Shown here: positions 1 to 59,699 of the stretch, piece by piece
Position numbering within the stretch: position 1 is the first letter of the stretch
Layout of the letters: each line of letters begins with the position of its first letter
From: an uncultured Elusimicrobia bacterium
GTDB taxonomy: Bacteria; Elusimicrobiota; Elusimicrobia; FEN-1173
Direction: 5' to 3'
Length of the DNA: 64,000 bases
Assembly (NCBI GenBank): GCA_964482515.1
Contig: CAYZXT010000001.1
Location: 169,373 to 233,372 of the forward strand
The notes under the pieces: generated by a model
The model's input: only the letters and a program-made list of their open reading frames with translations
The model's database searches: none
What the model was told of the DNA's origin: nothing
Program-made: the position numbers and the translations under genes

Positions 1-456
1 TTGTTTCTGCGCCTTCCGTTGCTCGGTTCCCTGGCGCAACGGATCGCCATGGCCCGTTTCGCCCACACCCTGGAAATCCTTCTATCGGGCGGTGTGCCGC
101 TCGTGGAGGCGCTCCAGACCGCCGCCGACGTCATGGGAAATAAAATCTTGCGCGCCCAAACACTGGAAGCCGCAGTGCGCGTCCGGCGCGGCGTTTCTTT
201 GGCTGAAAGTCTGAAGGCCTGCCCGGAGTTTTCGTCGCTGCTGCCGCAGATGGTCGCCATTGGCGAAGAGGGAAACACCGTCGAAAAGGCCCTGGGCCGC
301 GTGGCGATGATCTACGAAAGGGAATCCGACCGGGCGATGAAAACGATTCTCTCTCTGGTGGAGCCGGCGTTCATCCTCACGGTCGGCGGCGCGGTGGGGG
401 CCATCGTTGTGGCCATGCTGCTGCCGATCTTCCAGATCCCGGTGTTCGTGAGATGA
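1..456 (+). CDS. gspF: Type II secretion system platform protein GspF (PilC/GspF family), C-terminal portion; 5' end outside window
   Basis: Translation (ORF track 1..456) has the conserved GspF C-terminal region (LLSGGVPLVEAL...LPQMVAIGEEGN...EPAFILTVGGAVGAIVVAMLLPIF) and a C-terminal TM helix. It is followed by gspG with an ATGA overlap. Confidence 0.85.
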   Translation: MFLRLPLLGSLAQRIAMARFAHTLEILLSGGVPLVEALQTAADVMGNKILRAQTLEAAVRVRRGVSLAESLKACPEFSSLLPQMVAIGEEGNTVEKALGRVAMIYERESDRAMKTILSLVEPAFILTVGGAVGAIVVAMLLPIFQIPVFVR

Positions 457-923
457 AGAAAATCCGGGGGACTTTGGAGAATACACATCGCCCCGGATTG
501 GGGAACAGAGGGTTTACGTTGGTGGAAATGCTGCTCGTGGTGATCATCATTTCCACTCTGGCCGCCATGATCGTGCCGCGCTTCGCCGGGCGATCCGAGG
601 AGGCGAAAACGGCCGCCGCCGCGGCGGACGTGCGGGCCAACCTCGCCGCCGCCCTGGACCTCTACGAATTGGACAACGGCTTGTATCCCACGACGGCGCA
701 GGGGCTGGCCGCCCTTAAATCCGCTCCGACCTCCGCGCCGATGCCGAAACGATGGCGCGGCCCCTATTTGAAAAAGAACTCCCTCTCCGATCCCTGGGGA
801 AACCCCTACGTCTACCGGTCGCCGGGTTCGCACAACGCGGCGGACTACGATCTGTTTTCCACCGGGCCGGACGGCGCGGAAGGGAACGGTGACGATGTCA
901 CCAATTGGGACGAGCGTGGATAA
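453..923 (+). CDS. gspG: Type II secretion major pseudopilin GspG
   Basis: Prepilin leader then G/FTLVEMLLVVIIIS (class III signal with Glu+5). Conserved GspG core (AAAADVRANLAAALDLYELDNGLYPTTAQGLAAL...WRGPYL...DPWGNPYVY). ATG 453 overlaps gspF stop (ATGA). Confidence 0.93.
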   Translation: MKKIRGTLENTHRPGLGNRGFTLVEMLLVVIIISTLAAMIVPRFAGRSEEAKTAAAAADVRANLAAALDLYELDNGLYPTTAQGLAALKSAPTSAPMPKRWRGPYLKKNSLSDPWGNPYVYRSPGSHNAADYDLFSTGPDGAEGNGDDVTNWDERG

Positions 924-1392
924 GAAATGGCAAAGGGGTTTTACGTTGATTGAACTTGTTTTCGTGGTCATGCTTCTCGGCGTTTTCCTCGGGATGGCGG
1001 CGCCGGTCTTTCGCGGAGCCTACCGGGCTGTGGCTTTGGATGTGGCCGCGGACAGGTTGGTGGGATTGCTGGCCTACGGCCGGGAGCGGGCGGTCATGGA
1101 ACGTTCCCGGCTCCGGCTGGAAATTGATACCGCGACGGGATCTTATCGTCTTTTGCTGGAAGATCCGTCGGCGCCGGGAGATTTCCTCCCTTTGCGCGAG
1201 AGTATTGGGCGGGGGATATTGCTCCCCGCCGGTACGGTCCTGGAACCCGGCCGTCCCTATGTGGAGTTCCTTCCGGACGGGACGGTCGACGAAGGTTCCC
1301 TGACGATCAAGGGGGCGATGAACGACGTCCGGCGGATCGATTGGGATTCCCTCACCGGCAACGCGAGGGTCCATGATCCGGCGCGGGGCTGA
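916..1392 (+). CDS. gspH: Minor pseudopilin, GspH-like (prepilin N-terminal cleavage/methylation domain)
   Basis: Motif QRG/FTLIELVFVVMLLGV. Position directly after gspG. ORF track starts at ATG 889, but in-frame GTG 916 gives a canonical short leader (MDKKWQRG/FTLIE) and overlaps the gspG stop by 8 nt; start choice uncertain (889 or 916). Confidence 0.7.
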   Translation: MDKKWQRGFTLIELVFVVMLLGVFLGMAAPVFRGAYRAVALDVAADRLVGLLAYGRERAVMERSRLRLEIDTATGSYRLLLEDPSAPGDFLPLRESIGRGILLPAGTVLEPGRPYVEFLPDGTVDEGSLTIKGAMNDVRRIDWDSLTGNARVHDPARG

Positions 1393-1690
1393 GGGTTTCG
1401 TGCTGCTGGAGGTCTTGTTGTCCGCGTTGATTCTGACCGTGGGCGTGTTCGCCCTGTTCGGATCGTTCTCGTCTGCGCGGCGGATGGCGAAGGCGGAGGA
1501 GGAATGGACGCGGGCCGTTTTCCTCCTGGAAGCCGGGACTTGGGCATGGGAGAAAACCGGGAAGTGGCCGCCTACCGATGGAAACCTGCGCCACGACGAG
1601 GTTCAGGATAAATCCGCGCGGCGCGGAACCCTCTTCGTCCGCCTGTCGCCGGACCGGAACGATGAATTGTCTTTGTCGGCGTACCGATGA
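1373..1690 (+). CDS. gspI: Minor pseudopilin, GspI-like
   Basis: Leader MIRRGAEG/FVLLEVLLSALILTV (prepilin motif) in a ~105-aa protein. Size and position after gspH match GspI. Confidence 0.65.
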   Translation: MIRRGAEGFVLLEVLLSALILTVGVFALFGSFSSARRMAKAEEEWTRAVFLLEAGTWAWEKTGKWPPTDGNLRHDEVQDKSARRGTLFVRLSPDRNDELSLSAYR

Positions 1691-2265
1691 GAAAAAATGC
1701 GGAAGGCTACACGCTCGTGGAGTTGTTGATCGCCCTGGCCGTTTTTTCGGCCCTCGCCGCGTCCTTCGCCGTGGCGCTGCGGCAGGGGTTCCATTCCTGG
1801 AAGATGCAAAGGGAGGATCAGCTTCGCCGCCAGGAGGCGAGGGTTGTCTTGAACCGGCTGGCACGGGATCTGCGGAACGCCGTCCCGCTCGCGAAGGAAA
1901 GTTTCATCGGTTCGGAGCGGGAAATCATTTTCCATAGACCCGAGGAGAACGGGATCGTCCGCGTCCAGTATCGCCTGTCGGAGAATCACGGGAACACGGT
2001 CCTGGAACGCCGGCATCAGTTCCTGTCGCGGGAAGGGAACGGAACGCCGGTGCGGCGCGCCACGATTTCGTCGTCGATGAAAGTCCATTGGGAATTCGCC
2101 GCTAAATCCCCGGAAAACGGAGAGATTATTTGGCGGCGGAAGTGGACGGACGGCGATGGCTTCCCCTTGGGGATGCGCGTCCGGCTCGAGCTTCCGTCCG
2201 CGGACGGGCGTGCGCCGCCGGTCGTTTATCAGCGGATTTTGGATTTCCCCTTGGGAGGGACATGA
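1687..2265 (+). CDS. gspJ: Minor pseudopilin, GspJ-like
   Basis: Leader MRKNAEG/YTLVELLIALAVFSAL (prepilin motif). ~190 aa. ATGA overlap with gspI stop. Confidence 0.65.
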   Translation: MRKNAEGYTLVELLIALAVFSALAASFAVALRQGFHSWKMQREDQLRRQEARVVLNRLARDLRNAVPLAKESFIGSEREIIFHRPEENGIVRVQYRLSENHGNTVLERRHQFLSREGNGTPVRRATISSSMKVHWEFAAKSPENGEIIWRRKWTDGDGFPLGMRVRLELPSADGRAPPVVYQRILDFPLGGT

Positions 2266-2266
2266 C

Positions 2267-3130
2267 ATGGCGCGGCGCCGGAACGAAACCGGATCGCTCC
2301 TCATCATCGCTCTATGGGCGCTGCTCGTTGTGGGACTGCTGGCCCTGGGCGTTTCCCACGGCGCGCGGTTCGCGCTGCGGCTGACGGAATATCAGCGGGA
2401 CGAGATACGCCTGACCCAGGGCGCCAAGGCGGCCGCGGCTTTTTGCGCGGGAGTCGTGAGCGAGGAGGGTCCGCCGGTGACGGCCTTGAACCAGCCCTGG
2501 CGGGCGGACTTCAGCCGCGGCGGAGACCATCCCATTCCCGGCGGCTCGTTCACCGTCCACGGTTTCGGGTTAGTCGATGAAGAAGGGAAAGTCAATCTGA
2601 ACGAAGCGTCCGCCGGGGAGTTGAATCGGATTTTCGAAAACGAGCCGCGCTGCGTCGTTTCCGTCCAACAGCAGCGGCTGTTCAGCGTGTCGGAACTTCG
2701 GGCTCTTCCGGGCATGACCGTGGAAGCCTACGAGCGGATCAAGGACGCCGTGACGGTACACGGTTCCGGGCGGATCAATATCAATACCGCGGGCGCGAAG
2801 ACCTTGGAGTTCCTGGGGATGAAAAAACCCCTCATCGGCAAAATCATGAATTTTCGCGGCGGGCCGGACGGAATCAACGGGACGGCGGACGACGGTGTCT
2901 TTCGAAACCTCGCGGGCATGGCGGGCGAACTGGGGGCGCGCGTGGTTCTGACAGACGAGGAAAGGGCCGTGCTTGCGGAGCTTCTAAGTCGCGGCCGGTT
3001 AACGGTGAGGTCACGGGTTTTCGCCGGAGATTTCATCGTCCGCCTCAGCGACAGCCGCGCTATCCGGCGCTGCCGCGTGGTCTTCGACGCCGAGAGCGGC
3101 AAAATCCTTTCCTGGCGGGAGGAGCCGTGA
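2267..3130 (+). CDS. gspK: Type II secretion minor pseudopilin GspK-like
   Basis: In-frame ATG 2267 one nt after the gspJ stop. N-terminus GSLLIIALWALLVVGLLALGVSHGARFALRLTEYQRDE is typical of GspK. Helix-hairpin-helix-like region (SELRALPGMTVEAYERI). The longer ORF-track start 2156 overlaps gspJ and was not used. Confidence 0.75.
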   Translation: MARRRNETGSLLIIALWALLVVGLLALGVSHGARFALRLTEYQRDEIRLTQGAKAAAAFCAGVVSEEGPPVTALNQPWRADFSRGGDHPIPGGSFTVHGFGLVDEEGKVNLNEASAGELNRIFENEPRCVVSVQQQRLFSVSELRALPGMTVEAYERIKDAVTVHGSGRININTAGAKTLEFLGMKKPLIGKIMNFRGGPDGINGTADDGVFRNLAGMAGELGARVVLTDEERAVLAELLSRGRLTVRSRVFAGDFIVRLSDSRAIRRCRVVFDAESGKILSWREEP

Positions 3131-4542
3131 ACCATCGCGCCACCGGAATATTTTGGAACAGGCGGGGCGTGGCCGTGGCGGAGGTCGATAATTCTTCCTT
3201 TGCTCCGGTCGTGGCCAGGTGGGCTTGGGCCCCTTTCGAGACCGAATCGCTTGAGGGCCGGGCGCGGACGATCCATCAATTGTTCGTGGAATACAACTTC
3301 TCGCAAAAGACGGTCGTGGCCGCGCTGGCGCAAAAGGCCGCGCTCTTGAAAATCGTGACCCTTCCGGCGGCGTCGCCGGCGGACACCGCCTCCATGGCCG
3401 ACATTCAGGCGTGGAAACTGTTGCCTCTTTTGGCGGAGGAGCCGGAGTCCGGGTATGAGATTTTGGAGGAGAAGAGGACGGAGCGCCTCGTGGCTTTGAC
3501 CATCGCGCGGCGGGGAGAGACCGAGGATATCCTTTCGACGCTTTCCGCCGCGGGAGTCCGTCCGGAGAGCGTTGTTCCGGAGTTTTACGCGCTCCTGTTC
3601 GCTTCTTGCGGGAGAGCGCCGGCGGGCGACCTGGCCCTCATCCATACGGATGCGGAGCGGATGATCTTCGTTTGTTCGCGTCGGGAAAAAGTTTCCTTCG
3701 CCCGCGCCGTGGATTTCAATGGCGACGGGGATTCGCGCTATGACGATGAACGCATCCTGGCGGAGTGGCGCAAATGCGCTGGCGCGTTCGAGGGGCCGTA
3801 CGGCCCGGTGCGGATTGTTTTGGCGGGCGATGCCGCGGCTTTGCCTTACCTGAAGGAGCGGTTCCACAAGGAAACGGGTCTCCAGGTAGAATCTTCGGAC
3901 CCCTTTTCCATCGTCTCCCGCCTGGCGGGCGCGCCGGAAAACCTGGAGGGGCAAACCTGCGCGCTGGTCGCCCTCGGGGCGGCGATGTCCGCCGGGACAA
4001 CGCGCTTGAATTTCCTTCCCAGGGCGGAGAAGCAACGTCGCGCGAAAATCCTTCGCCTCCGGGAATGGGCGGGCGTGGCCGCGGCGGCTGTCTTTCTTTT
4101 CGCGTCTCTCGGCGTGGTTGCTTTCCAAAAGTCGCGTGAAATGAAACGGCGGCTGCAGATTATGGAAATGCGTCTCACTGTGCTGCGGCCGGAGGCGGTG
4201 GAGGCGGAGAAGATGCTGAAGGAAATCGCCCTCGCGCGGGCACGGCGGGATACCCGGGGAGCCGCGCTGGGCGTCCTGTCGGAGGTGAGCAAGACCATGT
4301 CCGCGGACGTCGCTTTGTCCGCGTTGGATTATGAGAAGGGAGAACGTGTGTCGATCCGGGCCGCGGCGCGGAACCTGTCCGCGGCGGCGTCCTGGGTCCG
4401 GCGCATCGCCCAGTCCGGAACCTTCCGAAGCGTGGAGCTGCGTTCCTCGTCGGTCCGCGAGGGCGCCGCAGGGGCCGTTGTGGACTTTCAGGCGGTGGGG
4501 ATCCTGACGCCGGGCGAAATGAATGAACTTACCCAGGGTTGA
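3127..4542 (+). CDS. gspL: GspL-like assembly protein (cytoplasmic PilM/actin-like domain, single TM, periplasmic PilN-like domain)
   Basis: GTG 3127 overlaps gspK stop (GTGA). Internal TM (WAGVAAAAVFLFASLGVVAF) follows a ~300-aa cytoplasmic domain and precedes a coiled-coil periplasmic part. Position in the F-G-H-I-J-K-L-M order. Confidence 0.55.
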   Translation: MNHRATGIFWNRRGVAVAEVDNSSFAPVVARWAWAPFETESLEGRARTIHQLFVEYNFSQKTVVAALAQKAALLKIVTLPAASPADTASMADIQAWKLLPLLAEEPESGYEILEEKRTERLVALTIARRGETEDILSTLSAAGVRPESVVPEFYALLFASCGRAPAGDLALIHTDAERMIFVCSRREKVSFARAVDFNGDGDSRYDDERILAEWRKCAGAFEGPYGPVRIVLAGDAAALPYLKERFHKETGLQVESSDPFSIVSRLAGAPENLEGQTCALVALGAAMSAGTTRLNFLPRAEKQRRAKILRLREWAGVAAAAVFLFASLGVVAFQKSREMKRRLQIMEMRLTVLRPEAVEAEKMLKEIALARARRDTRGAALGVLSEVSKTMSADVALSALDYEKGERVSIRAAARNLSAAASWVRRIAQSGTFRSVELRSSSVREGAAGAVVDFQAVGILTPGEMNELTQG

Positions 4543-5050
4543 TTTCTCCCGGCGGGAAAAAGTCGCGGCGGTTTCGGCGGCAACGGTCGTCTGCGTTTAT
4601 CTGCTTTGCCGGACGATGTTGTTTCCCGCGTGGGCGAGCTGGTGGATGTTGTCCGACGAGCTCTCCCTGCGCGAAGCAGAATTACGCAAAGCGCTCGCGC
4701 TGGCTCAATGGCGGGAGGATTTGATCGCGCAATGGAGGAGCATCGCCGGAAAGGAGACGTACTCCGCGCGCGGCGACCAAAACGCCATGGACCTGGTGCG
4801 GGACGCCGAATCCTGGGCCAAACGTTCGGGTGTGAAAATCATCGATCTGCGCCCGGTACGAGCCGAAGCTGCGGACAATCTTCATTCGACGGTCGGCGTC
4901 CATCTTTCGATCGAAGGAAGCTGGCCGTCCCTGGTACGCTTCCTGGAACGGGCGCAAAATGCCGGGCTGTCCGTGGAGTCGCTCCACATCCAACGTCCGC
5001 CCGACGGCGGACCAACGCTGTACGCGATGCTGTCCGTCGAAAAGATTTAA
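4523..5050 (+). CDS. gspM: GspM/PilO-like bitopic inner-membrane assembly protein
   Basis: N-terminal TM (AAVSAATVVCVYLLC), coiled coil, C-terminal alpha/beta domain. Last gene of the cluster before the terminator. Assignment is by position and architecture. Confidence 0.45.
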   Translation: MNLPRVDFSRREKVAAVSAATVVCVYLLCRTMLFPAWASWWMLSDELSLREAELRKALALAQWREDLIAQWRSIAGKETYSARGDQNAMDLVRDAESWAKRSGVKIIDLRPVRAEAADNLHSTVGVHLSIEGSWPSLVRFLERAQNAGLSVESLHIQRPPDGGPTLYAMLSVEKI

Positions 5051-7844: not shown

Positions 7845-7917
7845 GCCGGGGTAGCTCAGCTGGTAGAGCAGCCGCTTCGTAAGCGGCAGGTCGTCGGTTC
7901 GATCCCGATCCCCGGCT
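7845..7917 (+). tRNA. tRNA-Thr (anticodon CGU)
   Basis: 73 nt. Acceptor GCCGGGG/CCCCGGC, D-arm GCTC-AGCTGGTAG-GAGC, anticodon stem GCCGC/GCGGC with loop TTCGTAA (anticodon CGT), T-arm GTCGG-TTCGATC-CCGAT, discriminator T. CCA not encoded. Confidence 0.9.
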
Positions 7918-41762: not shown

Positions 41763-41865
41763 TAAATCCTTGAAAAAAACGTTGTAATCTTGTTGAATTT
41801 CGTTAAACTTACACTTACGGATTCATTTTTAGTGGGGATTTTAATACTCGTTGAAAGGATGACCT
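41763..41865 (+). promoter_or_regulatory. AT-rich intergenic promoter region and RBS for the 41866 gene
   Basis: About 70% AT against a 64% GC background. Candidate elements TTGAAA (41771), TTGTAA-16-TAAACT (41783..41810). SD AAAGGA 7 nt before ATG 41866. Confidence 0.35.
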
Positions 41866-42483
41866 ATGACAACAAAGGCATTTTCTAAGAAAGAGGCGTT
41901 GCAGTTCGGTTGGAACACCATGAAAACCAACGTGGGGTTCTTCATCGGATTGCTCCTGATCGTTTGGGCTATTTCCGTTATCCCGGGCATCATTAATAAT
42001 TTCGTCAAGGTCACGGCCGTCGCCCTGATCGTGGCCATCGTCTTCCGGTTCATCCAATGGTTTCTGGAGATCGGCCTCATCAAGATCAGCCTGGCTTTTG
42101 TGGACGGGAAAACGCCGGCCATTCCGGAGCTGTTTTCCGGCAAAGAGGTTTATTGGAAATACGTCGGCGGCACCATCCTCTACGGGTTGATCGTCTTCGG
42201 CGGCATCCTGCTGTTGATCGTGCCGGGGATCATCTGGTCCATCCAGTTCTTTTTCTACAGCTACCTGATCGTGGAAAAGGGAATGAAGCCCATCGACGCC
42301 TTGAAGGCCAGCTCGGCCATGACCAAGGGGCATAAATGGGAATTGTTCCTCTTCGGCTTGATCACGCTCGGCGTCAATTTGCTCGGCGCCCTCTGCTTGC
42401 TGGTCGGGCTTTTCGCCACCGTCCCCACGACTTTGGTGGCCCTGGCGACGATCTACCGCAAGCTGTCCAACCAGAACGCTTAG
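41866..42483 (+). CDS. Integral membrane protein of unknown function (5-6 TM), compositionally atypical
   Basis: 205 aa. Lower GC and different codon usage from its neighbours. Own promoter region and a strong downstream terminator. Confidence 0.7.
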   Translation: MTTKAFSKKEALQFGWNTMKTNVGFFIGLLLIVWAISVIPGIINNFVKVTAVALIVAIVFRFIQWFLEIGLIKISLAFVDGKTPAIPELFSGKEVYWKYVGGTILYGLIVFGGILLLIVPGIIWSIQFFFYSYLIVEKGMKPIDALKASSAMTKGHKWELFLFGLITLGVNLLGALCLLVGLFATVPTTLVALATIYRKLSNQNA

Positions 42484-42515
42484 TTAACGTCCGGTCATAG
42501 TCATCCTTTAATGGT

Positions 42516-49271: not shown

Positions 49272-50179
49272 ACCGGGCGGCGCTCCGCCGGACCGCGTTC
49301 ATCGCGGCCGTTTCGCTGTTGTTCGGAACAGGCGGCCTGCTTTTTGCGGCCAGCGCGGTCTTGGCGCCTAGGGACGGCAGGTCCGAAGACGGCCGGCCCG
49401 CGCCGAAAACCATCATCACCGGCAGCCGCATGAACCTCCTCAACAAAGGCGACGCCGTGGAGTTCGTGGGAGGCGTCAAGGTCGTCCGCGGCAACGATTC
49501 CCTGTCCGCCGACAGGGTCCTTTCGGAGGAAAAGAAGGGGTTGGTCCACGCCTGGGGGAACGTTTATCTCCGTCGCAACGTTCCCGAGGAGAACATCAAA
49601 CTGGAAGCCTGGTCCCAGGAAGCGGCCTATAACACCGACACCAGTTCCGCCACGTTGCGGAACAAGGGGTCGCAGGCCAAGCTGAGGCGCTCCGATCTGT
49701 CTTCGGACGGAGAGCGGTTGTCGAAGACGTCCTACTTGGAAATGAAGGCCGTGCGCATGACGTTTTTTGAATCGACGGACCCCCGGCCCTCCGCGGTCAT
49801 GGGATATCCTCTGGTTTCAACCGCGCCCGTCGCCGCGAGCACGTCGACTTTCGGCGCCATGGAGGCCCAGGGCGACGTTTATGTGTTCTCCCAGGAAGTG
49901 TCGACGTCCGCGCCGACGAAGAAAACCGAGATCTGGGCGACCGAATCATTTTTTGAGGGGCGGGGCCGGCGGGCCGTTTTCTGGAATAAAGACGGCGGGA
50001 GCGCGGCTTTTCCCTTTCCCCGCGCGCGTCAGGAGGAAGACGACGCCGTCCGGAACCTCAAAGGGGAAACGCTGATTTATCATATGGACGACCAGCGGCT
50101 GGTCGTCCAAGGGCGCGTTTCGGCGGAGATGTGGACGCCGAAAAAATCCACGGACACGATGAAGAAAGAAGGACGGTGA
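49268..50179 (+). CDS. lptA: LPS export periplasmic protein LptA (OstA-like N-terminal domain) with extended C-terminal region
   Basis: GTG start overlapping the lptC stop (GTGA). Signal/TM, then the OstA_N beta-jellyroll pattern (ITGSRMNLLNKGDAVEFVGGVKVVRGNDSLSADRV...). About 300 aa, longer than E. coli LptA. Confidence 0.7.
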   Translation: MNRAALRRTAFIAAVSLLFGTGGLLFAASAVLAPRDGRSEDGRPAPKTIITGSRMNLLNKGDAVEFVGGVKVVRGNDSLSADRVLSEEKKGLVHAWGNVYLRRNVPEENIKLEAWSQEAAYNTDTSSATLRNKGSQAKLRRSDLSSDGERLSKTSYLEMKAVRMTFFESTDPRPSAVMGYPLVSTAPVAASTSTFGAMEAQGDVYVFSQEVSTSAPTKKTEIWATESFFEGRGRRAVFWNKDGGSAAFPFPRARQEEDDAVRNLKGETLIYHMDDQRLVVQGRVSAEMWTPKKSTDTMKKEGR

Positions 50180-50907
50180 GCGGCATGGGACTTCGCGCGA
50201 GCAATTTAAAGAAAACCTACGGCCTGAAGACCGTGGTCAACGGCGTAAGCCTGGAAGTGAACCCGGGCGAGATCGTCGGACTGCTGGGCCCCAACGGCGC
50301 GGGCAAAACCACGTCGTTCTACATGATCGTCGGGTTGATCCCGCCGGACGCTGGGAGCATTTTCATCGACGACCTGGAGGTGACGGACCTTCCGATGTAC
50401 CGGAGGGCCCGGTCCGGCCTCGGCTACCTTTGCCAGGAACCCTCGATCTTCCGGAAAATGACCGTCGAGGACAACCTGAACGCCATCCTGGAGCATCTTC
50501 CCTTGACGAAGCAGGAACAGAACGAAAAGCGGGAAAAGCTCTTGGAGGACCTGGGCCTGACCCGCCTACGCAAGCAGATGGCCTACACCCTTTCGGGCGG
50601 CGAGAAGCGGCGCACGGAGATCGCCCGCGCGCTCACGACCGATCCACAGTACCTGCTTTTGGACGAGCCCTTCGTCGGCATCGACCCGGTGGCGGTGAAC
50701 GACATACAGGAAGTCCTCGGCTCCTTGAAAAAAATGGGCCTCGGGCTCCTCATCACCGACCACAACGTCCAGGCGACCTTGGAAATCGTGGACCGGGCCT
50801 CCATCATCCACGGCGGCCAGATTTTGGTGCAGGGCAGCGCCAGCGATCTCTTGAACTCCGCCGAGGCCCGGAGAGTTTACTTAGGGGAAAAATTCCGCCT
50901 CACGTAG
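50176..50907 (+). CDS. lptB: LPS export ABC transporter ATP-binding protein LptB
   Basis: Walker A GPNGAGKTTSF, signature LSGGEKRRTEIARAL, Walker B LLLDEPFVGID. GTG 50176 (GTGA overlap) or ATG 50185. Confidence 0.92.
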   Translation: MSGMGLRASNLKKTYGLKTVVNGVSLEVNPGEIVGLLGPNGAGKTTSFYMIVGLIPPDAGSIFIDDLEVTDLPMYRRARSGLGYLCQEPSIFRKMTVEDNLNAILEHLPLTKQEQNEKREKLLEDLGLTRLRKQMAYTLSGGEKRRTEIARALTTDPQYLLLDEPFVGIDPVAVNDIQEVLGSLKKMGLGLLITDHNVQATLEIVDRASIIHGGQILVQGSASDLLNSAEARRVYLGEKFRLT

Positions 50908-51012
50908 GCAGCCCAGAGAAAAAATTGAGGAAGAATTCCCGCTGATTTATCGACGTAAAATCAGTTTACAATTGTTACAAGTGACTTATGACACAGTCTT
51001 TTCATGCAATCA

Positions 51013-51041
51013 TTGACATAGGGGTTTCGTGGGACTACACT
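51013..51041 (+). promoter_or_regulatory. Sigma70-like promoter for the pilin-like three-gene island
   Basis: TTGACA-17 nt-TACACT located 42 nt upstream of ATG 51083, in a 175-nt AT-rich spacer after lptB. Confidence 0.45.
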
Positions 51042-51082
51042 TGTTGAGACGAAGGGGTAAAATCCGTTTACACAGGTCGCCC

Positions 51083-52423
51083 ATGTCTAAAGCCGCTAAC
51101 TCAATGTTTTTGCGATTGCTCGCTCTCTTTAATCCGACCGGTCCGGGTCGGTCGAATTTATTCCGCCCTGTCGCCGCAGAGACCGGCTCCGTCGTCGTTC
51201 TCATTGTCATGCTCATCAGCCTCCTGGCTTTTATTCCCGTCGGGACTCAGTTGGTGAAGATGGCCCGCCAAAATATCGGGCTTCAGCTGCATTCCACCGT
51301 CCAAGCCGACAACGTGGCCCGCGCCGGCTTGACGGACGCCGTCGCCTGGTTCCGCCGCCAAACAACCCAACCTGTGCGGAATTTGGGAACCCCCTATCCG
51401 GACGCGGCATTCGCCCCGGTCGACAGTGGCGACCCCGACGACACCGACACGATAGATGCGGCCATCGGACTGGTGAAGGAATACGACTTGGGAGAATCGA
51501 ACAACCTCTGGGCGCGTTATGAAGTGCGGCGCCAGGCTGTGGACAACGTTGCCGATCCCTCGGCCAACGATCCGCACGCCGTGCACGACATCACGCTCCT
51601 GCGCTTGCAAGGGTCGACCGATACATTGAACGGCGGGGGGCTGGCCTGGTATATCGAAAGCGTGGGGTATGTTTATCGCCGAAGGGACCCGTCCGTGGCT
51701 TACAACGTCGCTCCCAACGAGATCGTCGGCCGGTCGCGCGTGGCCACGGAAATCCGGCGCGTCGCCTTGAACCGCGCGGAAGCCAACGCCGCGGTGGTGA
51801 TCACCAGCCGCGGCAGCGGCACCATCAATACCAATTGCCGGGTCGTGGGGGGCAGCACCGCCTACGGCGTCGCCTATTGCGGCGGCTCCGGCGGGACATG
51901 GGGGAACTCATCCACGCCTGTGCGCACGTCGGGAACCACGGCGTGGAATTACAGCATCACGTCGGGCGCCTTCAATACGAGCTTGGACATTCAGTCTCTC
52001 TTCGGCGTGACCCCCTATGAGCTGAAGCTCATGGCGGACTACAGCGTGTCCACCGTTGCCCAATTGCCGAGCGATTATCCATCGGCGTCCTTGGTTTTCA
52101 TCGACGGTCCGGCGACGTTCGACGACCCTCGTCCCTTAAGGGGCGGCGGGATTCTCTTCGTCAACGGCAACCTCACTCTCTCCGGCTTGAGCACCAACAC
52201 CCATATTTTCAGCGGGCTGATCTATGTCAACGGCAACTGCACCATCACCGGGCCCGCCACGATCTCGGGAACGCTCTGGGTGACGGGCAGCCTCACGATG
52301 AGTGGCGGCAGCGACGTCGCGGAAGTCCTTTTTGACGGCGATATCCTGACCGCCGTCCAACAGCAGGTGGGCCAGTACCGCGAGAACAAGTCCGCCTATC
52401 ACGTTTTCTCGGCGCAAAAATGA
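51083..52423 (+). CDS. PilX/GspK-like pilus-associated protein (N-terminal hydrophobic PilX_N-like segment, C-terminal parallel-beta-repeat region)
   Basis: Start moved to ATG 51083 because ORF-track ATG 51029 lies inside the predicted promoter. N-terminus GSVVVLIVMLISLLAFIPVGTQLVKMARQNIGLQLHSTVQADNVARAGLTDAVAWFRR parallels the PilX/GspK N-terminal architecture, with no G/FxxxE cleavage motif. C-terminal repeats GGGILFVNGNLTLSG / GLIYVNGNCTITG / GTLWVTGSLTMSGG. Confidence 0.6.
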   Translation: MSKAANSMFLRLLALFNPTGPGRSNLFRPVAAETGSVVVLIVMLISLLAFIPVGTQLVKMARQNIGLQLHSTVQADNVARAGLTDAVAWFRRQTTQPVRNLGTPYPDAAFAPVDSGDPDDTDTIDAAIGLVKEYDLGESNNLWARYEVRRQAVDNVADPSANDPHAVHDITLLRLQGSTDTLNGGGLAWYIESVGYVYRRRDPSVAYNVAPNEIVGRSRVATEIRRVALNRAEANAAVVITSRGSGTINTNCRVVGGSTAYGVAYCGGSGGTWGNSSTPVRTSGTTAWNYSITSGAFNTSLDIQSLFGVTPYELKLMADYSVSTVAQLPSDYPSASLVFIDGPATFDDPRPLRGGGILFVNGNLTLSGLSTNTHIFSGLIYVNGNCTITGPATISGTLWVTGSLTMSGGSDVAEVLFDGDILTAVQQQVGQYRENKSAYHVFSAQK

Positions 52424-55400
52424 AAAATAAACGTCCCGCTCATCTCGGCGAAAAAGGGTTCACCCTGGTGGAGGTCGTCATCGCCATGGTCGTCCTAAGC
52501 GTTGTGGCATTGGGCAGCATGAAGGCTTTCTGGTTCATCAGCCAGCAAAACGTGATCGTGAACAAGCGGTCTTTCGCGGCTCAAAAAGCCGTTCAGATGA
52601 TCGAGGAACTCAGGGGCCTCATCGCGGACGCGGACACGGAGATCGGGGTCCTCGATAACTACGACAACGGCAGCGGCTATAAATACACCTTGTCGACCCG
52701 TTCGGAAGTGAATGCGAACCTCTCCACGGTCGACCCCGGCGATCTGCCGGGCGATCCCATCAGCGGAAACAGCGGATTGAAATTCAAGCGCCAAGTCCGC
52801 GTGCTGCAGATGCCGAACGAAGAGTTGGCCCGGCGGGTCTATGTGCGCGTTTACGATAGCGGGAACAACGAAGTCCTCGCCGAGACCGTCAGCGTGTTGC
52901 GCAGCGTCCGAAACCAGTTCTATCCCACCCAGGAGTACGATGTCTATGTCCTCAGCCTGGAAAACGTTCCGGGGTGGTGGAGCGCCTTGTCCACCCTTCA
53001 GCCCACGTTCGACAGCATGGTGGAGGACCTGAAGGTCCGCAATCCGGGGCTTAACCTGAGGGTCCATTACATCACCCGATTGGCCTACGGGCGCGACCCG
53101 TTTTACATGCCGTACACCAACGACGCCACGCGCGCGGACAACGTCGCGTCACCCTGGGTTTATTTCTATCCGGGCAACGTGGATCGACCCAGTGTCGGGG
53201 ATTTTTATTATTACGTGCCTGACGGGTTCCAGGGGCGGATCAACATAGACGGCACAGTCGTCAACCCGAATTCGTACAGCATCGCCGATCAATACAACCA
53301 GGCGGTGCGCTATCCGGATGAGGAGTCCCTCTATGCTGCGGCGGTGGCTTCGGCCGCGGCCACCGGCACGACGGCGCCTGAAATCAGTTTGCGCATGCTG
53401 TGGGAGCGCATGATCACAAGCTCGGACACCTATCGCAACCTGTTCGTGGTGAACCTGCACGGAGAGCTGCTGCCTTTGCCGCCCATGCGCAACTATTCGG
53501 ACGCGGCGAAGGCGCCGATGGTTTCCACATACACCAACGTCCGCGCTGTGACCCACCCCGAAAGGTTGCAGTATGCCTCCGGCAGCCAGGTGAACCTGCG
53601 CGTGTACACGTACGTGATGGATCCTACCAATGCGGCATGGACGGATACTTCTTCCACTACACTGAACATCCTGATCAGCACGCCGCTCATTTCGGGCAAC
53701 GTCACCGTCCGGAAAGTCACCGGCAATTCCGGCGCAAATTACGCATGGGGAGCCGCCTCGGCCGGCACCGATTATGTCTTTTCAAATCCGACGCCTGCCA
53801 CCACCCTCATCACTCTTTTCAACAGTCCTCTCAGACATGCCGAGGCCGGCAACGGGACAGGTCTTCGCTCAACGCACCGTTTGCACGGCCTGGAATATAT
53901 TCCAAGTCCGCTGGCCGGTAGCGGGGCTTCCTTCGCGGAAGGAGACAAGGACCTGGCGGATCCGGACGACGACGATGATCCCCATAACACCGCCCGCTGG
54001 GTGATCCAAATCGCCGCCGGCGCTTTGAGCAATGGGATGCATACCTTTGAAACCCGCCTGGGCGACGATTACACCACGGGCACTTCCACCAACCAGCCTA
54101 CGAATATTTCCCGCACCTATACGTGGGTGGGAACCACGGCGCCCGCGACGGAAAAATATCAGTTCATGGGCGATCCCCGCCATATGCCCTATGTCGATGT
54201 CAAGGCTGAGCTGGGATACAATTGGTACTTCAACAATGCCACCTTCGTGTCTGGCGATTACCCGGGCTATACCAACGTCCAGAACCGTTGGAACGGGACG
54301 GCGAACGTGGACATCCCGCGCTACATGCAGGCCCTGCGCACCGGGCTCATGAACGCAGAAGGGATTTGGACCAGCATGACGGGTTTTTCCAATTACTATG
54401 TGGGGCTGGGCGGCGAGATCGGTTATGACGCCTCCAACGGGTTCTCCAACAGCATCGATATCGTGGGAACGCCTTGGAACAACGCGGGCACCATCGGCGT
54501 CCAGGAAATCACCAGCGGGGCCGGTTCTTCCTCCGAGAACTATTCCCGGATCATTTCCAGCGATAACAACAACTGGTGGGGACTTTACTGGCTGGGCGAA
54601 CTCTACCCGGACAGCGCCTACTCCCTTTGGAGTTCCAGCGGGAACCTTCCCGTGGGCACTAACCAATATTACCGGCGACGCTTCAACGGAGTGACCGGAT
54701 TCGCCGCAAGCGAAGTCCAGAAGCGCCTCTCCGAGAGAGGCTCCTCGTCTTTCTTCAACGGGAACCCGTCCGGGAACGACAGTTCCTGGTTCAACCACCA
54801 GTACCGGGACGGCAACGGCGCGACCCTGACCGTCATCGGATCGACGGTGGCCGCGGACTTCAACTTTCCGCTTTTAAGCAGCATGAACGCCGACCGGCCT
54901 TTTCTGTTGAACATGACCGACACGAGCCGCCGGCCGGACGAGTGGAACCTGGCGCCCTACAACGTGACGTCCGGAGCGTCGCGGCAGCGGACCACGCTCA
55001 GCACCTTCGAAACGTGGTACGAAACGACCGGATATACATCGACGGAAGATTCCAGCGCTTTGCTCAGGTTCCACCTGGGAGCTGGCACGCGCGTGGGCAA
55101 CGTGGTCATGAACGGCCTTTCGCCCACCGGCAGTTTCGGCAACTCCCAGATCGCCAAACTTTGTTTAACCAACCAGCTTCGGGCCTTCATGACCCTCGGC
55201 AGCCCCGCCGCGACCCAGGGGGCCATCGCGCAAGTGCCGTTGGTGTCCATCACTTCGCCGACCGTGTCCAGCGAGCTTCCTCTCACTGTTACGAGCATCA
55301 ACGTAACCTGGTCCACCGCCTGGACGCGTTGGGACGGCGCCCCTTACACGAGCGCTTATGCGGGGTATGCGTCGCCGCCCGGCATGGGGTATAATGTGAA

Positions 55401-55617
55401 ATATTCGGTCGACAACGGCCAAACCTGGAGGTTCGTCAACACGGGGCTTTCGGCGACAGCCGGCGTTTACTCCGCCGCGAATGCGGTCACTAGCCCGGTC
55501 ACCTGGGACGTGTCGGCCTTCGGCGCCGGGACCTATATACTACGCGTAGAAGGCTATCGAAACAACTTGCCCATGCATTATTCCCACCATCAAAGAAGGG
55601 TGTACATCCGGCGTTAG
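52420..55617 (+). CDS. Giant (1065 aa) prepilin-type protein: class III signal + N-methylation motif followed by ~1000-aa extracellular region with an Asp-box (BNR) motif
   Basis: ATGA overlap with the upstream gene. Leader MKNKRPAHLGEK-G/FTLVEVVIAMVVLSVVALG (Gly-1, Glu+5). Very Asn/Ser/Thr/Gly/Tyr/Trp-rich body. Asp-box SVDNGQTW near the C-terminus. Confidence 0.75.
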   Translation: MKNKRPAHLGEKGFTLVEVVIAMVVLSVVALGSMKAFWFISQQNVIVNKRSFAAQKAVQMIEELRGLIADADTEIGVLDNYDNGSGYKYTLSTRSEVNANLSTVDPGDLPGDPISGNSGLKFKRQVRVLQMPNEELARRVYVRVYDSGNNEVLAETVSVLRSVRNQFYPTQEYDVYVLSLENVPGWWSALSTLQPTFDSMVEDLKVRNPGLNLRVHYITRLAYGRDPFYMPYTNDATRADNVASPWVYFYPGNVDRPSVGDFYYYVPDGFQGRINIDGTVVNPNSYSIADQYNQAVRYPDEESLYAAAVASAAATGTTAPEISLRMLWERMITSSDTYRNLFVVNLHGELLPLPPMRNYSDAAKAPMVSTYTNVRAVTHPERLQYASGSQVNLRVYTYVMDPTNAAWTDTSSTTLNILISTPLISGNVTVRKVTGNSGANYAWGAASAGTDYVFSNPTPATTLITLFNSPLRHAEAGNGTGLRSTHRLHGLEYIPSPLAGSGASFAEGDKDLADPDDDDDPHNTARWVIQIAAGALSNGMHTFETRLGDDYTTGTSTNQPTNISRTYTWVGTTAPATEKYQFMGDPRHMPYVDVKAELGYNWYFNNATFVSGDYPGYTNVQNRWNGTANVDIPRYMQALRTGLMNAEGIWTSMTGFSNYYVGLGGEIGYDASNGFSNSIDIVGTPWNNAGTIGVQEITSGAGSSSENYSRIISSDNNNWWGLYWLGELYPDSAYSLWSSSGNLPVGTNQYYRRRFNGVTGFAASEVQKRLSERGSSSFFNGNPSGNDSSWFNHQYRDGNGATLTVIGSTVAADFNFPLLSSMNADRPFLLNMTDTSRRPDEWNLAPYNVTSGASRQRTTLSTFETWYETTGYTSTEDSSALLRFHLGAGTRVGNVVMNGLSPTGSFGNSQIAKLCLTNQLRAFMTLGSPAATQGAIAQVPLVSITSPTVSSELPLTVTSINVTWSTAWTRWDGAPYTSAYAGYASPPGMGYNVKYSVDNGQTWRFVNTGLSATAGVYSAANAVTSPVTWDVSAFGAGTYILRVEGYRNNLPMHYSHHQRRVYIRR

Positions 55618-55626
55618 GCCCATCCC

Positions 55627-56697
55627 ATGTCGACTTTCCGGATTTTCTTAAAAAAAACATTCAAATCCATTACGCGGATTGCCGGCGGCGAGCGGGGAAT
55701 CACCTTCGTGGAAGTTCTAATCACGGGCGCGCTGGTCGCCGTCCTGGTTTTGTCCGTTGTGCCGCTCTTCAATGTCACCAGCCGGGGTTTCACCAGTTTG
55801 GAGGTCAATACCGTGCTTTCCTCGGGATCGCAGGCGGCGCTGAACAAAATACAGCACCGGCTCGTGGAAAGCAAGCGGATATTCGGCAACACCGCCAGCG
55901 ACAACGCCTTCCTGGCCAAAGTGACGTTCAGCGGCGCTCCCTCCGTTTTGTCGGGCAGCAAGTTGCCGGTAATTGTTTCTACGGCATCCATTTCACCGAG
56001 CAGCGCGACGTTCAACGCTGCCAACGTGGGGAACAGCCTTTTTTTCGCGAGCTTGGACTCCACGGCGGATTTCGACGACATCGCCGTGTCCGGCGGTACG
56101 CAGGGAATCCGGATCGATACCTATGTCTTCAATTATTACTACCTCAGCCCTGATTCGTCCCAAACCATCGGCGGAAGCGCCGTGAGGCGATTGTGGGAAT
56201 GGCACAGCGTCCGCTACGCTGACTACATACAGATCGTGAATATCACCGACACGACGAAACGCACAAACACCATCACAGCCCTTAAAAATTCCGGGATAGA
56301 TTATGCGTGGTGTTCTTCGGCCACCGTTGCGACATCCGCTTTCTACACTTTAACCGCCGGCAACGCGAACCCCGGAGCCAGTTCGGGTCATTCGATCCCC
56401 AAAGCCTCCGGCAGTAATTCCCAGAAAAATATGCTTCAGTTGGTCCGCGGCGTCACCACGGGCGGCTTCCGTTATTCCGTATCGCCCAACACCAGCGGGA
56501 GTTTCAACCCGAAACATACCGTGCCGGTATACGGCATGGCGTCGGGGAATTTTCCTTCGGGGTTTGAGGTGCTGGTCGTGGGCCCCAGCGGTACCCGGCA
56601 GGTGTTCATGCGCCTTGTGCTGGCAGCCCAGGGTAGTTTCAAAGGATTCCTGTCAAACGATCAGACGGTGCTGGTGACGACGAGGGATGTGTGGTGA
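55627..56697 (+). CDS. Pilin/pseudopilin-like protein (356 aa) with long leader
   Basis: ...ITRIAGGERG/ITFVEVLITGALVAVLVLSVV (Gly-1, Glu+5) after a 24-aa leader. Ser/Thr/Gly/Asn-rich beta-type C-terminal domain. Confidence 0.65.
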   Translation: MSTFRIFLKKTFKSITRIAGGERGITFVEVLITGALVAVLVLSVVPLFNVTSRGFTSLEVNTVLSSGSQAALNKIQHRLVESKRIFGNTASDNAFLAKVTFSGAPSVLSGSKLPVIVSTASISPSSATFNAANVGNSLFFASLDSTADFDDIAVSGGTQGIRIDTYVFNYYYLSPDSSQTIGGSAVRRLWEWHSVRYADYIQIVNITDTTKRTNTITALKNSGIDYAWCSSATVATSAFYTLTAGNANPGASSGHSIPKASGSNSQKNMLQLVRGVTTGGFRYSVSPNTSGSFNPKHTVPVYGMASGNFPSGFEVLVVGPSGTRQVFMRLVLAAQGSFKGFLSNDQTVLVTTRDVW

Positions 56698-57422
56698 GCC
56701 AAATCACCTACGGAACGGCCTTCGCGGCGGGCATCATTTCATTCCTCTCCCCATGCGTTTTGCCCCTTGTGCCGGGATACATTTCCTTCATCTCGGGACT
56801 CTCGCTTGATGAGTTGACGAAAACCCAGGATCGCGCGGCTGTGAACCGGAGGACGGCCGTGGGCTCCATCGCTTTCACGCTTGGATTCGCTTCGGTGTTC
56901 ACGGCGCTGGGCGCTTCCGCGTCGGTGGTGGGCCAATGGTTGTTCGACTATCAGGCCGTCCTGAGCAAGATTGCCGGCGCGATCATTTTCTTCTTCGGGC
57001 TGCACACCATGGGCGTCCTTCCGATAAAGTGGCTTTATTATGAAAAGCGGTTCCAGGCGAACAAGACGGCGCCGGGCGCCGTGGGCGCTTTCGTGATGGG
57101 ACTGGCCTTTGCTTTCGGTTGGACGCCCTGCATCGGCCCCATCCTCGCCGGTATCCTGGCGCTAGCCGCGACGCAAGACACGGTGGCTCAAGGAACGATG
57201 CTGCTCTTCGTGTATTCCATGGGATTGGGGATCCCTTTCATCCTGACCGGTTTTGGTGTCAACACGTTCCTCCGCTTCTTCGCGCGCTACAAGCGGTTCA
57301 TCCGCTGGGGGGAGATCGCGGCCGGGTTTCTGCTGGTGGCCATCGGCGTCCTGATTTTCTTCAACCGCCTCACCGTGCTCATCAATTACCTGCCCGACTC
57401 CTTCATGCGCTTCGCCCGCTGA
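56691..57422 (+). CDS. ccdA: Cytochrome c-type biogenesis / thiol:disulfide interchange membrane protein CcdA (DsbD beta-domain family)
   Basis: Two conserved Cys in TM1 and TM4 (FLSPCVLPLVPGY...; GWTPCIGPILAGIL). 6 TM. Confidence 0.85.
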   Translation: MVSQITYGTAFAAGIISFLSPCVLPLVPGYISFISGLSLDELTKTQDRAAVNRRTAVGSIAFTLGFASVFTALGASASVVGQWLFDYQAVLSKIAGAIIFFFGLHTMGVLPIKWLYYEKRFQANKTAPGAVGAFVMGLAFAFGWTPCIGPILAGILALAATQDTVAQGTMLLFVYSMGLGIPFILTGFGVNTFLRFFARYKRFIRWGEIAAGFLLVAIGVLIFFNRLTVLINYLPDSFMRFAR

Positions 57423-57497
57423 CCGTTCCGCCGCTTTACCCGCCTTTCTTTCCTTACTAAAATAGTTTTCATCCCTTTCCCGCGAGGCTGCTCGACC

Positions 57498-59699
57498 ATG
57501 TCATCCGTAAAACCCAACGCGCTCATCCACGAAAAAAGTCCCTACCTCCTTCAGCACGCCCATAACCCGGTGGATTGGATGCCCTGGGGCGACGCTGCCT
57601 TCGCGCGCGCGCGGAGCGAAAGCAAACCTATCTTCCTTTCGATCGGCTATTCCACCTGCCACTGGTGCCACGTGATGGAACGGGAATCTTTTGCCAACGC
57701 CGACATCGCCGCGCTCATGAACAGAAACTTTGTCTGCATCAAAGTGGACCGGGAGGAGCGGCCCGACGTGGACAAGATCTATATGACCGCGGTGCAGGCC
57801 ATCACCGGCCAAGGGGGATGGCCTTTGAACGCGTGGCTGACGCCCGGCCTGAAACCGTTCTACGGCGGGACCTACTTCCCGCCCGAATCGCGTTGGGGCC
57901 GTCCGGGTTTTCCGGAGATATTGGAACGCATCGCGGAGATGTGGACGGCCGAACGGGAGAAGCTGGAGGATTCCGGCCGGCAGATCCAGGAATTGCTGGC
58001 GCAATCGCTGGGCGGGCGGGATTTGAGCGGCGCCCTGGACCCGAAGGCGCTGGATTCCGCGTTCAAATATTTTTCCATGGCCTTCGACGAAAAATGGGGC
58101 GGGTTCCGGGAAGCGCCCAAATTCCCCATGCCGGTCTACCATAATTTTCTTTTGCGGTATTATGCCTCAACCAAAAAACAGGAAGCGTTGGATATGTCCC
58201 TGGAAACCCTGCGCGCCATCGCCGCGGGCGGGATCTACGATCAAATCGGCGGCGGGTTCCACCGCTATTCCACGGACGAGCGCTGGCACGTCCCGCATTT
58301 CGAGAAGATGCTTTATGACAACGCGCAGCTGGCGGTCAATTATATCGAGGCGTTCCAGATTTCGGGGGACGAGAATTTCGCCCGCGTCGCGCGCGAGACC
58401 CTGGATTACGTCTTGCGCGACATGTCCCACCCGGACGGGGGGCTTTATTCCGCCGAAGACGCCGACAGCCTGCCGCCGGAACTGGTCGGCCAGGTGGAAG
58501 ACAAGGGGCATGAGCACCGCGCCGCCCTCTCCGCAGAGCTCCGAGGACAGGCCGCGGTCCAGAGGACCGACGACTCGGCCGAAGGCGCGTTCTATATTTG
58601 GAAATACAGCGAGCTGATGCAGCTCCTGGGTCCGGTGAACGGCGAGATCTTTTGCCTCCATTACGGCGCATCGCCCAACGGCAACGCGGAGTCCGATCCA
58701 CAGGGGGAGTTCGAGAACAAAAACATCCTGTTCTTCGCCCATAACGTTGACGCGGTCGCCGCCCGATTCAAGAAATCCCCAGAGGAGGTCCGCCGCATCC
58801 TCGATGATTCGCGGCGGAAGGTTTTCATGTCGCGCGAGAGGCGGCCCCGCCCGCAACGCGACGATAAAATCCTGGCTTCCTGGAACGGCCTCGCGCTGTC
58901 GGCCTTCGCCAAGGCCGCGCAGGTTTTCGACGACGCGAAATACCGGGAGGCGGCGCAGCGGATCGCGCGGTTCCTGAAGACCCATTTATACGACGCGAAG
59001 GATGGAAGGTTGTATCGGCGCTGGCGCGACGGCGCACGCGGAATCCCCGGCACGGCGGACGATCACGCGTTCCTCGCGCAGGGGCTTTTGGATCTCTATG
59101 AGGCGGACTTCGACGCGGGCTGGCTGGCCTGGGCGGAAACGCTAACGCAGAAGCAAAACGATCTTTTCCTAGACAGGGAGCGCGGCGGGTTCTACATGAC
59201 CGCGTCCGATCACGACGGGAATATTTCCCTGCGCAGCAAAGAGGACATGGACAACGTGGAGCCGTCGGCGGCGTCGGTGGCGGCGTTGAACCTCCTGCGG
59301 CTGGCGGAACTGACGGACCGCGATGACTTTCGAAAGATCGCGGAGCAGACGTTGATCTCCTTCGGTTCGGCCATGGGGGAACAGCCCCAGGCGCTGCCTC
59401 AGATGCTTGTTGCCTTGGATTATTATTTCGCCAAGCCGCGGCAAATCGTCGTCGCGGGCGAGCGCGACGGCACCGATACGCGAGCTCTTCTGCGCGAAGT
59501 CCATCAGAGATTCCTCCCTCATAAAATCGTGTTCCTGCTCGACGGCTCAGGTGCGGAACGCGAACTCCTGGATCGCCTGCCCTATTTGAAGGACATGGCT
59601 CCCGTGGGCGGCAAAGCGTCGGCCTACGTCTGCGTGGACCGTGCCTGCGCGCTGCCGGTGAACGAACCCGGCAAGCTGGCGGAAATCCTGGCCCGTTAG
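57498..59699 (+). CDS. Thioredoxin-domain protein YyaL (DUF255 + six-hairpin glycosidase-like domain)
   Basis: [52 protein letters not shown] is a highly conserved YyaL/DUF255 N-terminus. Confidence 0.9.

Follow-up and report, generated by a model that had tools for sequence, protein, structure and literature searches.

Minor-pilin tip complexes decide which ligand a type IV filament binds and whether the filament assembles, and they have been studied almost exclusively in Proteobacteria, Firmicutes, Thermus and, recently, cyanobacteria. The closest described systems are the GspK-GspI-GspJ tip of the type II secretion system (T2SS) of enterotoxigenic Escherichia coli (ETEC; 3CI0), with its Pseudomonas counterpart XcpX-V-W (5VTM); the PilY1-type tip sets; the cyanobacterial PilX-PilV-PilW-FimT sets, with Thermus ComZ; and the modular pilins. 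It is well established that the capping subunit, GspK or PilX, lacks the glutamate at position +5 (Glu5) that is present in GspI/J and PilV/W (restated in bioRxiv 10.64898/2026.02.12.705559). For ComZ and all cyanobacterial PilX proteins, a beta-solenoid inserted before the last pilin strand has been reported. PA14 and ConA-like lectin modules are recurrent grafts on modular pilins, the largest of which noted in a survey has 860 aa in total (Raynaud et al. 2021, PMC8179133). Here we analyze a 64,000-nt stretch of DNA from an uncultured Elusimicrobia bacterium (assembly GCA_964482515.1, contig CAYZXT010000001.1, positions 169,373 to 233,372 of the forward strand; hereafter the window), where three co-oriented open reading frames (ORFs), denoted A, B and C, lie between lptB and a DsbD_TM/ccdA gene (Table 1). 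We put the probability that this trio is an orphan core minor-pilin set, that is, the tip or priming complex of a type IV filament, at roughly 0.6. The components are of a known kind (minor-pilin tip complexes, solenoid-bearing PilX/ComZ and modular pilins), whereas the specific A-B-C cassette is new, in that a PilV-like subunit, and not PilX or a separate PilY1, bears a very large, highly conserved, unannotated module.

The original prediction, made from the sequence alone, recognized a PilX/GspK-like protein, a giant prepilin and a long-leader pilin between lptB and ccdA, and these gene calls are correct in both identity and size. B starts with a 13-aa leader (MKNKRPAHLGEKG↓FTLVE, the arrow marking the cleavage site); in its family, Glu5 is invariant (64/64), and Gly-1 is found in every sequence that is ungapped at that column. 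The leader of C comprises 24 residues and ends with G↓ITFVE, the family pattern being G↓(F/I/V)TLVE, with Glu5 in 46/46 ungapped sequences and Gly-1 in all ungapped ones. Both proteins carry the class III signal of type IV pilins (leader ending with Gly, hydrophobic stretch, Glu at +5), in agreement with what had been proposed for these two. In A, the corresponding segment reads (E/Q)(R/K)G↓S-A-L and is followed by a hydrophobic stretch; the Gly is conserved in all 60 ungapped sequences (60/60) and the +5 residue is hydrophobic, as is typical of the GspK/PilX-type N-terminus (conserved Gly, no Glu5). This N-terminus aligns with that of GspK encoded in the window ('ETGS' motif). Judged from sequence, the absence of Glu5 in A and its presence in B and C is the pattern of a GspK/PilX cap versus GspI/J or PilV/W subunits, and it is the first argument for a tip or priming complex.

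When A, B and C were compared with Pfam and NCBIfam, the sole match was the N-terminal methylation motif of B (PF07963, 27.9 bits, cutoff 21.2; TIGR02532, 24.8 bits, cutoff 16.3). A matched no family at E<=1 in either collection, including T2SSK and PilX_N. Within the C family, 41 of the 48 members match PF07963 (best E 1.7e-8), with no score for C of the window itself. The scores of B against the GspI (TIGR01707, 17.1 bits, cutoff 44.35) and PilV (TIGR02523, 19.5 bits, cutoff 52.2) models are limited to the N-terminal helix, and BLAST detected no similarity between the pilin module of B and the GspI of the same genome. The C family reaches 19 bits against gspJ (TIGR01711, cutoff 64.85), confined to aa 1-32, and its matches to other pilin hidden Markov models (HMMs) span the N-terminal ~60 aa only, far under the cutoffs. 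Comparison with hhalign likewise aligned only the N-terminal helices of C with GspJ, and of A with GspK, of the window, and profile searches against PDB sequences matched B and C to pilin N-terminal helices only and A, weakly, to beta-helices. The matches of C to Verru_Chthon, Hps, GspJ and ComG models all proved to be restricted to the N-terminal helix and far below the cutoffs. In current databases, the proteins are annotated as 'hypothetical protein', 'prepilin-type N-terminal domain protein' or 'PilV family protein'; defining the cassette should improve the annotation of the 'hypothetical' and 'PilV family' entries.

AlphaFold2 models were built from the family alignments. The model of A (pLDDT 87.2, pTM 0.79) shows a pilin fold interrupted by a large domain ahead of the last beta-strand and resembles GspK and ComZ. 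The inserted domain is an ice-binding-protein-like beta-solenoid, and a direct repeat at 52146-52251 of the window (66-nt period, 75% identity) corresponds to its successive 22-residue coils. The resemblance to ComZ could mean that the trio caps a competence (DNA-uptake) pilus, with A as the DNA receptor, but this is very unlikely, given that ice-binding proteins and tapirin adhesins are better matches to the solenoid than ComZ is, nothing in B resembles a DNA-binding module, the lectin-type inserts of B (see below) point to glycans, and the trio has no linked com genes.

In the model of B (pLDDT 87.0, pTM 0.82), the N-terminal pilin module is a structural match to the GspI class. For the ~880 residues beyond this module, neither a Pfam or NCBIfam model nor a whole-protein structural match was found, and the Foldseek search of B against PDB yielded weak beta-sandwich hits only (TMq <= 0.10). 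A PilY1-like reading of B was rejected, no PilY1/PilC beta-propeller domain being found. With a pilin module joined to an additional non-pilin module, B is a modular type IV pilin and has the largest pilin architecture that we found mentioned.

In the arrangement we favor, A would be the capping subunit (PilX/GspK class, without Glu5 and with a ComZ-like beta-solenoid); B, a pilin of the GspI/PilV class with ~880 further residues at its globular end that form a multi-domain module; and C, a third Glu5-containing pilin that would take the place of PilW/GspJ, as in the cyanobacterial PilX-PilV-PilW-FimT sets. The N-terminal helices would insert all three proteins into the inner membrane, where a prepilin peptidase encoded elsewhere would cut after the conserved Gly. 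A heterotrimer would then form on a platform/ATPase machine that is also encoded elsewhere, the obvious candidate in this genome being gspD-M, 46-50 kb away. Beneath the heterotrimer, a GspH/FimU-type adaptor would polymerize first, followed by the major (pseudo)pilin, so that the solenoid of A and the 115-kDa module of B would end up at the tip of the fibre. The trio would thereby provide an alternative tip for the gsp machine, which has its own small H-I-J-K set.

Compared with the T2SS tip, A has a beta-solenoid where GspK has an alpha-domain, B is about 10 times the size of GspI, and the gene order corresponds to K-I-J rather than I-J-K. Furthermore, the trio is not linked to the machine and lacks a GspH, none of the sequence HMMs is matched, and the GspJ-like place of C is putative. 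The cassette shares with the PilY1-type sets the apparent organization of a priming/tip set capped by a PilX without Glu5, plus a large tip protein (~1,000 aa or more), but here the large protein is itself a PilV-like pilin rather than a separate PilY1, there is no beta-propeller, and the cassette lacks FimU. Once defined, the cassette would be a candidate for a PilY1-type solution to the tip, with the large protein fused to a pilin.

With the cyanobacterial sets, A-B-C shares the X-V-W gene order; cyanobacterial PilX (PilX_Com and PilX_EPS/HpsA) and Thermus ComZ have a triangular ice-binding-protein-like solenoid placed exactly as in A; and the cyanobacterial sets, too, can be orphan and multi-copy, serving as alternative tips for one machine. 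However, the subunit enlarged in cyanobacteria is PilX (HpsA), whereas here it is the PilV-like B; the phyla differ; no sequence homology is detectable; and FimT is absent from the cassette, save for a GspH-like gene following C in two loci (L070 and L056). Like the modular pilins of Streptococcus sanguinis (PilB with a vWA module; PilC with a lectin module and its partner PilA) and ETEC CofB, B combines a pilin module with a grafted tip module. The difference is that the module of B comprises ~880 aa and multiple domains, with the lectin modules inserted into a conserved core rather than appended. Thus, the original statement that the trio matches no described system was too strong, given the PilX-PilV-PilW order of core minor-pilin sets, the ComZ-type solenoid and the modular pilin architecture, although it holds for the specific family, which is undescribed. 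The accompanying idea of a trans-acting tip complex gains from the GspK/ComZ-like fold of A, the GspI-like module of B, the Glu5 pattern and a machinery link in one locus (see below).

The Verru_Chthon cassette, which is conserved and small, joins the gene for a very large protein to genes of the prepilin type and is found in poorly studied phyla. Membership of the trio in this group (TIGR02596, TIGR02599, TIGR02600 and related models) was rejected: C homologues score at most ~20 bits against the TIGR02599 cutoff of 256.5, within the N-terminal helix only, and none of these models is matched by A or B. Nothing on the A-B-C family turned up in the literature searched for Elusimicrobia pilins, the Verru_Chthon cassette and TTHA1873.

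Homologues of B are numerous. More than 298 full-length ones were retrieved from the first protein database searched, 431 clusters at 50% identity (E<=1e-30) from a library of 1.84 billion representatives, and 290 relatives among 185,579 species genomes. They belong to Elusimicrobiota, Acidobacteriota (largely Thermoanaerobaculia, with the isolate genome CP011806.1 of Acidobacteria bacterium Mor1 among them), Planctomycetota, FCPU426 and Eisenbacteria, and are spread over hundreds of genomes in phyla with few cultured members. Another complete genome with the cassette is OY970284.1. Among the best 150 representatives, all except for obvious N-terminally truncated fragments start with the pilin N-terminus. 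Using tblastn, we found the order A-B-C on one strand in ~70 of the 82 distinct loci, from at least four phyla, the exceptions being mostly contig ends or very divergent A genes. Several genomes contain 2-4 copies of the cassette (multi-copy loci include L020, L022, L024 and L026), some in tandem, with two full trios in L021 (2359-14295) and A-B followed by A-B-C in L003 (3721-14236). Two loci (L009 and L037) encode a second giant prepilin of 817-859 aa nearby. The original prediction proposed a search for the trio and its neighbours in related genomes: the trio recurs, the neighbours do not, as all-against-all clustering of 1,057 flanking ORFs from 83 loci revealed no conserved neighbour beyond A, B and C. 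An apparent fourth conserved cluster was rejected because it consisted of antisense shadow ORFs. That A, B and C are retained as a unit and duplicated as a whole, with no other conserved neighbour, is the second argument for a tip or priming complex.

Typically, the cassette is an orphan. As the original prediction had it, no ATPase, secretin or major pilin gene is found within ~10 kb of the trio, and the T2SS pseudopilin operon (gspF-G-H-I-J-K-L-M) is at the far end of the window. Across the 82 loci, a GspE/PilB-type ATPase within 10 kb is encoded in only two. In only one of the 82, a locus from a Thermoanaerobaculia metagenome-assembled genome (L070, 7865-14246), is the cassette contiguous to machinery genes: the trio is followed by genes for a GspH-like prepilin (24% identity to GspH of the window over 123 aa, E 2e-5), a 240-aa ORF, T2SSF, T2SSE with MshEN, a 297-aa ORF, PilN-like and T2SSM_b, making a complete X-V-W-H set that heads a machine operon. 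In L056, a GspH-like gene is located directly 3' of C, and in six Thermoanaerobaculia loci, a stand-alone gene for an MshEN domain (E 4e-28 to PilF) lies 1.5-2 kb downstream of the trio. MshEN is the c-di-GMP-binding N-terminal domain of PilB, PilF and MshE. These linkages form the third argument for a tip or priming complex.

The machines of L070 and of the window are of the same general type, with MshEN-type GspE proteins 41.7% identical over 523 aa and with GspF, PilN-like and T2SSM_b proteins in common. The protein in the GspL position of the window operon (3127-4542, 471 aa) matches PilM_2 and PilN, not T2SSL; together with the MshEN domain in GspE, this gives the nominal T2SS of the window type IV pilus/MSHA-like features.

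The scarcity of adjoining machinery genes is also a ground for a different interpretation, namely, that the class III signal serves merely for export and membrane anchoring, and A, B and C are periplasmic or inner-membrane envelope proteins, for example acting on lipopolysaccharide (LPS) or glycans, that never polymerize. The kds/lpt (LPS) context in the window and the Wzy_C, glycosyltransferase and MatE genes in L001 are compatible with such a function, as are the enzyme-like conservation of the B core and its GATase1/ThuA/GIFT-like domain. Some phyla, moreover, show large expansions of N-methyl proteins with no assigned role. We nevertheless regard this interpretation as unlikely. The invariance of Glu5 in B and C and its absence in A is a pattern specific to filament assembly, A and B are predicted to have complete GspK- and GspI-class pilin folds rather than just an anchor helix, the trio of L070 is contiguous with GspH-F-E-N-M genes, and the flanking contexts vary between lineages.

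A low probability similarly attaches to a secretion endopilus, in which the trio would be an alternative GspK-I-J tip reprogramming a T2SS-like machine for polysaccharide or specific cargo, comparable to cyanobacterial HpsA-D. In this genome region, no machine other than a T2SS-like one was seen, that of L070 has T2SS-type features (MshEN-GspE, GspF, T2SSM_b), some C homologues weakly match the HpsB and HpsC HMMs, and a polysaccharide gene cluster adjoins the trio in L001. However, the Hps matches fall far short of the cutoffs and seldom extend beyond the N-terminal helix; a tip of 115 kDa with inserts of the lectin type suits surface exposure better than a periplasmic piston; and the trio has no linked secretin or cargo gene.

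Several observations weigh against the tip or priming complex itself. The sequence HMMs for GspI, PilV, GspJ, GspK and PilX are not matched, so that class assignments depend on predicted structures, and the PilW/GspJ-like placement of C is drawn from gene order, size and Glu5. The A-B-C heterotrimer is a step that we infer. In 80 of the 82 loci, there is no filament machinery within 10 kb; no prepilin peptidase gene was seen in the examined parts of the window; and the gsp operon of this genome already encodes an H-I-J-K set of its own. Finally, the conservation of the B core is unusually strong for an adhesin, and an enzymatic or structural role fits equally well.

This conservation extends to 102 positions of B that are at least 95% conserved across phyla. 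They concentrate at aa 170-400, 575-600 and 719-745, and His, Asp, Glu, Arg and Asn are frequent among them. In paralogues of B, insertions 100-500 residues long are located at fixed hot spots that follow profile positions ~390-545 and ~600; PA14 and ConA-like LamG_3 domains and, weakly, discoidin or Kelch are recognizable among them. The PA14 or LamG_3 inserts occur at ~aa 405-425 of B, within a stretch of low conservation. These inserts agree with the concept of the modular pilin (PMC8179133), the fourth argument for a tip or priming complex. The combination of a conserved core with lectin-type inserts at fixed hot spots suggests that the B core is a scaffold, plug or catalyst that presents variable, probably glycan-binding, units.

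A more far-reaching possibility, which we consider doubtful, is that the B core is an enzyme or glycan-handling machine on a dynamic fibre, or a pilin-fused replacement of PilY1, and that the cassette represents a distinct class of filament tip. The basis for this is the clustering of near-invariant polar residues in the GATase1/ThuA/GIFT-like domain. If so, the class would span phyla, and a PilY1 replacement would imply a tip plug and sensor role in Elusimicrobiota, Thermoanaerobaculia and Planctomycetota. The conserved polar cluster offers a concrete target for finding out what the carriers grasp or process with their fibres.

The original prediction described the trio as an inserted island of lower GC, with a drop from about 64% to 52-58%. 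The actual GC content of the block is 58.7%, against 62.0 +/- 1.7% for windows of the same size (55-64% across 500-nt windows). In composition, the block nevertheless stands out from the rest of the window: no other 5.7-kb stretch deviates as much, its GC content falls in the lowest 1%, and its tetranucleotide distance, 0.246 versus 0.136 +/- 0.028, is ~4 standard deviations above the mean. Along with the promoter within the AT-rich spacer upstream of A, this is what favors a horizontally acquired genomic island between lptB and ccdA. However, the GC deficit is mainly at codon position 1 (GC1 0.48-0.57), owing to proteins rich in Asn, Ser, Thr and Tyr, whereas GC at codon position 3 (0.71-0.78) overlaps that of the gsp genes in the window (0.76-0.78); the shift is small and mostly reflects amino acid composition. 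A search for island hallmarks found no tRNA gene or flanking repeats at the block, and no integrase was seen among the ORFs examined. In the closest relative (85-89% protein identity), both flanks are arranged as here, kdsA-kdsD-kdsC-lptC-lptA-lptB-A-B-C-ccdA. Homologues of B group by phylum, with 47 of the 50 nearest neighbours coming from the same phylum, which makes recent transfer unlikely and favors long vertical residence. A horizontal acquisition is therefore most improbable, and the trio is a native, anciently conserved set. The lowest-GC kilobase of the window is elsewhere, at 41001-42500 (52%), where a DUF3108 gene and a DUF975 membrane-protein gene deviate in GC more than the pilin block.

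Table 1. Features of the A-B-C locus, of its predicted proteins and of associated machinery genes (positions in the window unless a locus is named; aa, residues of the respective protein)
Feature	Position	Description
Gene A	51083..52423 (+)	446 aa; PilX/GspK-class minor pilin without Glu5
A, alpha1 helix	aa 34-92	AlphaFold2 model
A, 4-stranded pilin sheet	aa 129-225	AlphaFold2 model
A, ice-binding-protein-like beta-solenoid	aa 236-416; nt 51788-52330	AlphaFold2 model
A, final strand	aa 433-442	AlphaFold2 model
Gene B	52420..55617 (+)	1065 aa; giant modular prepilin
B, GspI/PilV-like pilin module	aa 14 to ~180; nt 52459-52959	AlphaFold2 model
B, GATase1/ThuA-like alpha/beta region	~aa 181-385	AlphaFold2 model
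B, beta-sandwich and mixed regions	after ~aa 385	insertion hot spot ~aa 400-450
B, C-terminal FN3-like sandwich	aa 941-1065	AlphaFold2 model
Gene C	55627..56697 (+)	356 aa; prepilin with 24-aa leader (…GGERG↓ITFVE); putative PilW/GspJ-like position
lptB	50131-50907	ABC_tran; 5' neighbour of the trio
ccdA-like DsbD_TM gene	56691..57422 (+)	start overlaps the stop of C
Palindrome TGATTT-N9-AAATCA	50943..50963 (+)	~50 nt upstream of the -35 box; read from the sequence
Sigma-70-like promoter	51013..51041 (+)	TTGACA (51013-51018), 17-nt spacer, TACACT (51036-51041); 10/12 positions match
gspF(3' end)-G-H-I-J-K-L-M operon	1..5050 (+)	gspG at 453-923 and gspH at 889-1392; gspD and gspE just upstream of the window
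Stand-alone MshEN protein	L036 15816-16454 (-)	212 aa; likewise in L028, L043, L048, L058 and L077

The promoter proposed originally, TTGACA-17-TACACT, proved to be the best of six promoter-like sites in the region, where 2.8 are expected, and both hexamers are kept in two contigs of a relative (L086 and L087), in which the spacer diverges. The palindrome, which may be an operator, and a ~40-nt stretch of the 5' leader are conserved in the same two contigs. Because the -10 box sits within the reading frame that opens at GTG 51029, A starts at ATG 51083 rather than at this GTG; the ATG start is confirmed by a database protein (P0121) identical to A across 446 residues. The three ORFs were thought to be coupled by 4-nt overlaps throughout, which is the case for A and B (ATGA), whereas B and C are separated by a 9-nt gap.

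No terminator follows C, and the overlap of its stop with the ccdA start (GTGGTGA) means that the transcript probably runs on past C. In this lineage, ccdA is probably co-transcribed with the trio, yet it lies outside the conserved cassette and is not beside the trio in other lineages. Downstream of ccdA is a gene for a 733-aa DUF255/thioredoxin-domain protein (together 56691-59699). Given the overlap, this seems to be the only lineage in which thiol-redox genes share a transcript with the pilin cassette. The translation of B contains a single cysteine.

A few kb from the gsp operon, at 9436-12207 and 12141-14639, the window encodes two tandem large proteins with a Wzy_C (O-antigen ligase-like) domain and many TPR repeats. 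In L001, a Wzy_C gene and glycosyltransferase and MatE genes are directly upstream of the trio. Pilin O-oligosaccharyltransferases are Wzy_C proteins, and by this analogy, pilin glycosylation may link these genes to the filaments. Between the gsp operon and the tandem genes, the window contains a tRNA-Thr(CGT) gene (7845-7917), followed by a gene for a 485-aa protein (to 9408) with weak PorV-like and TolB_N-like matches.

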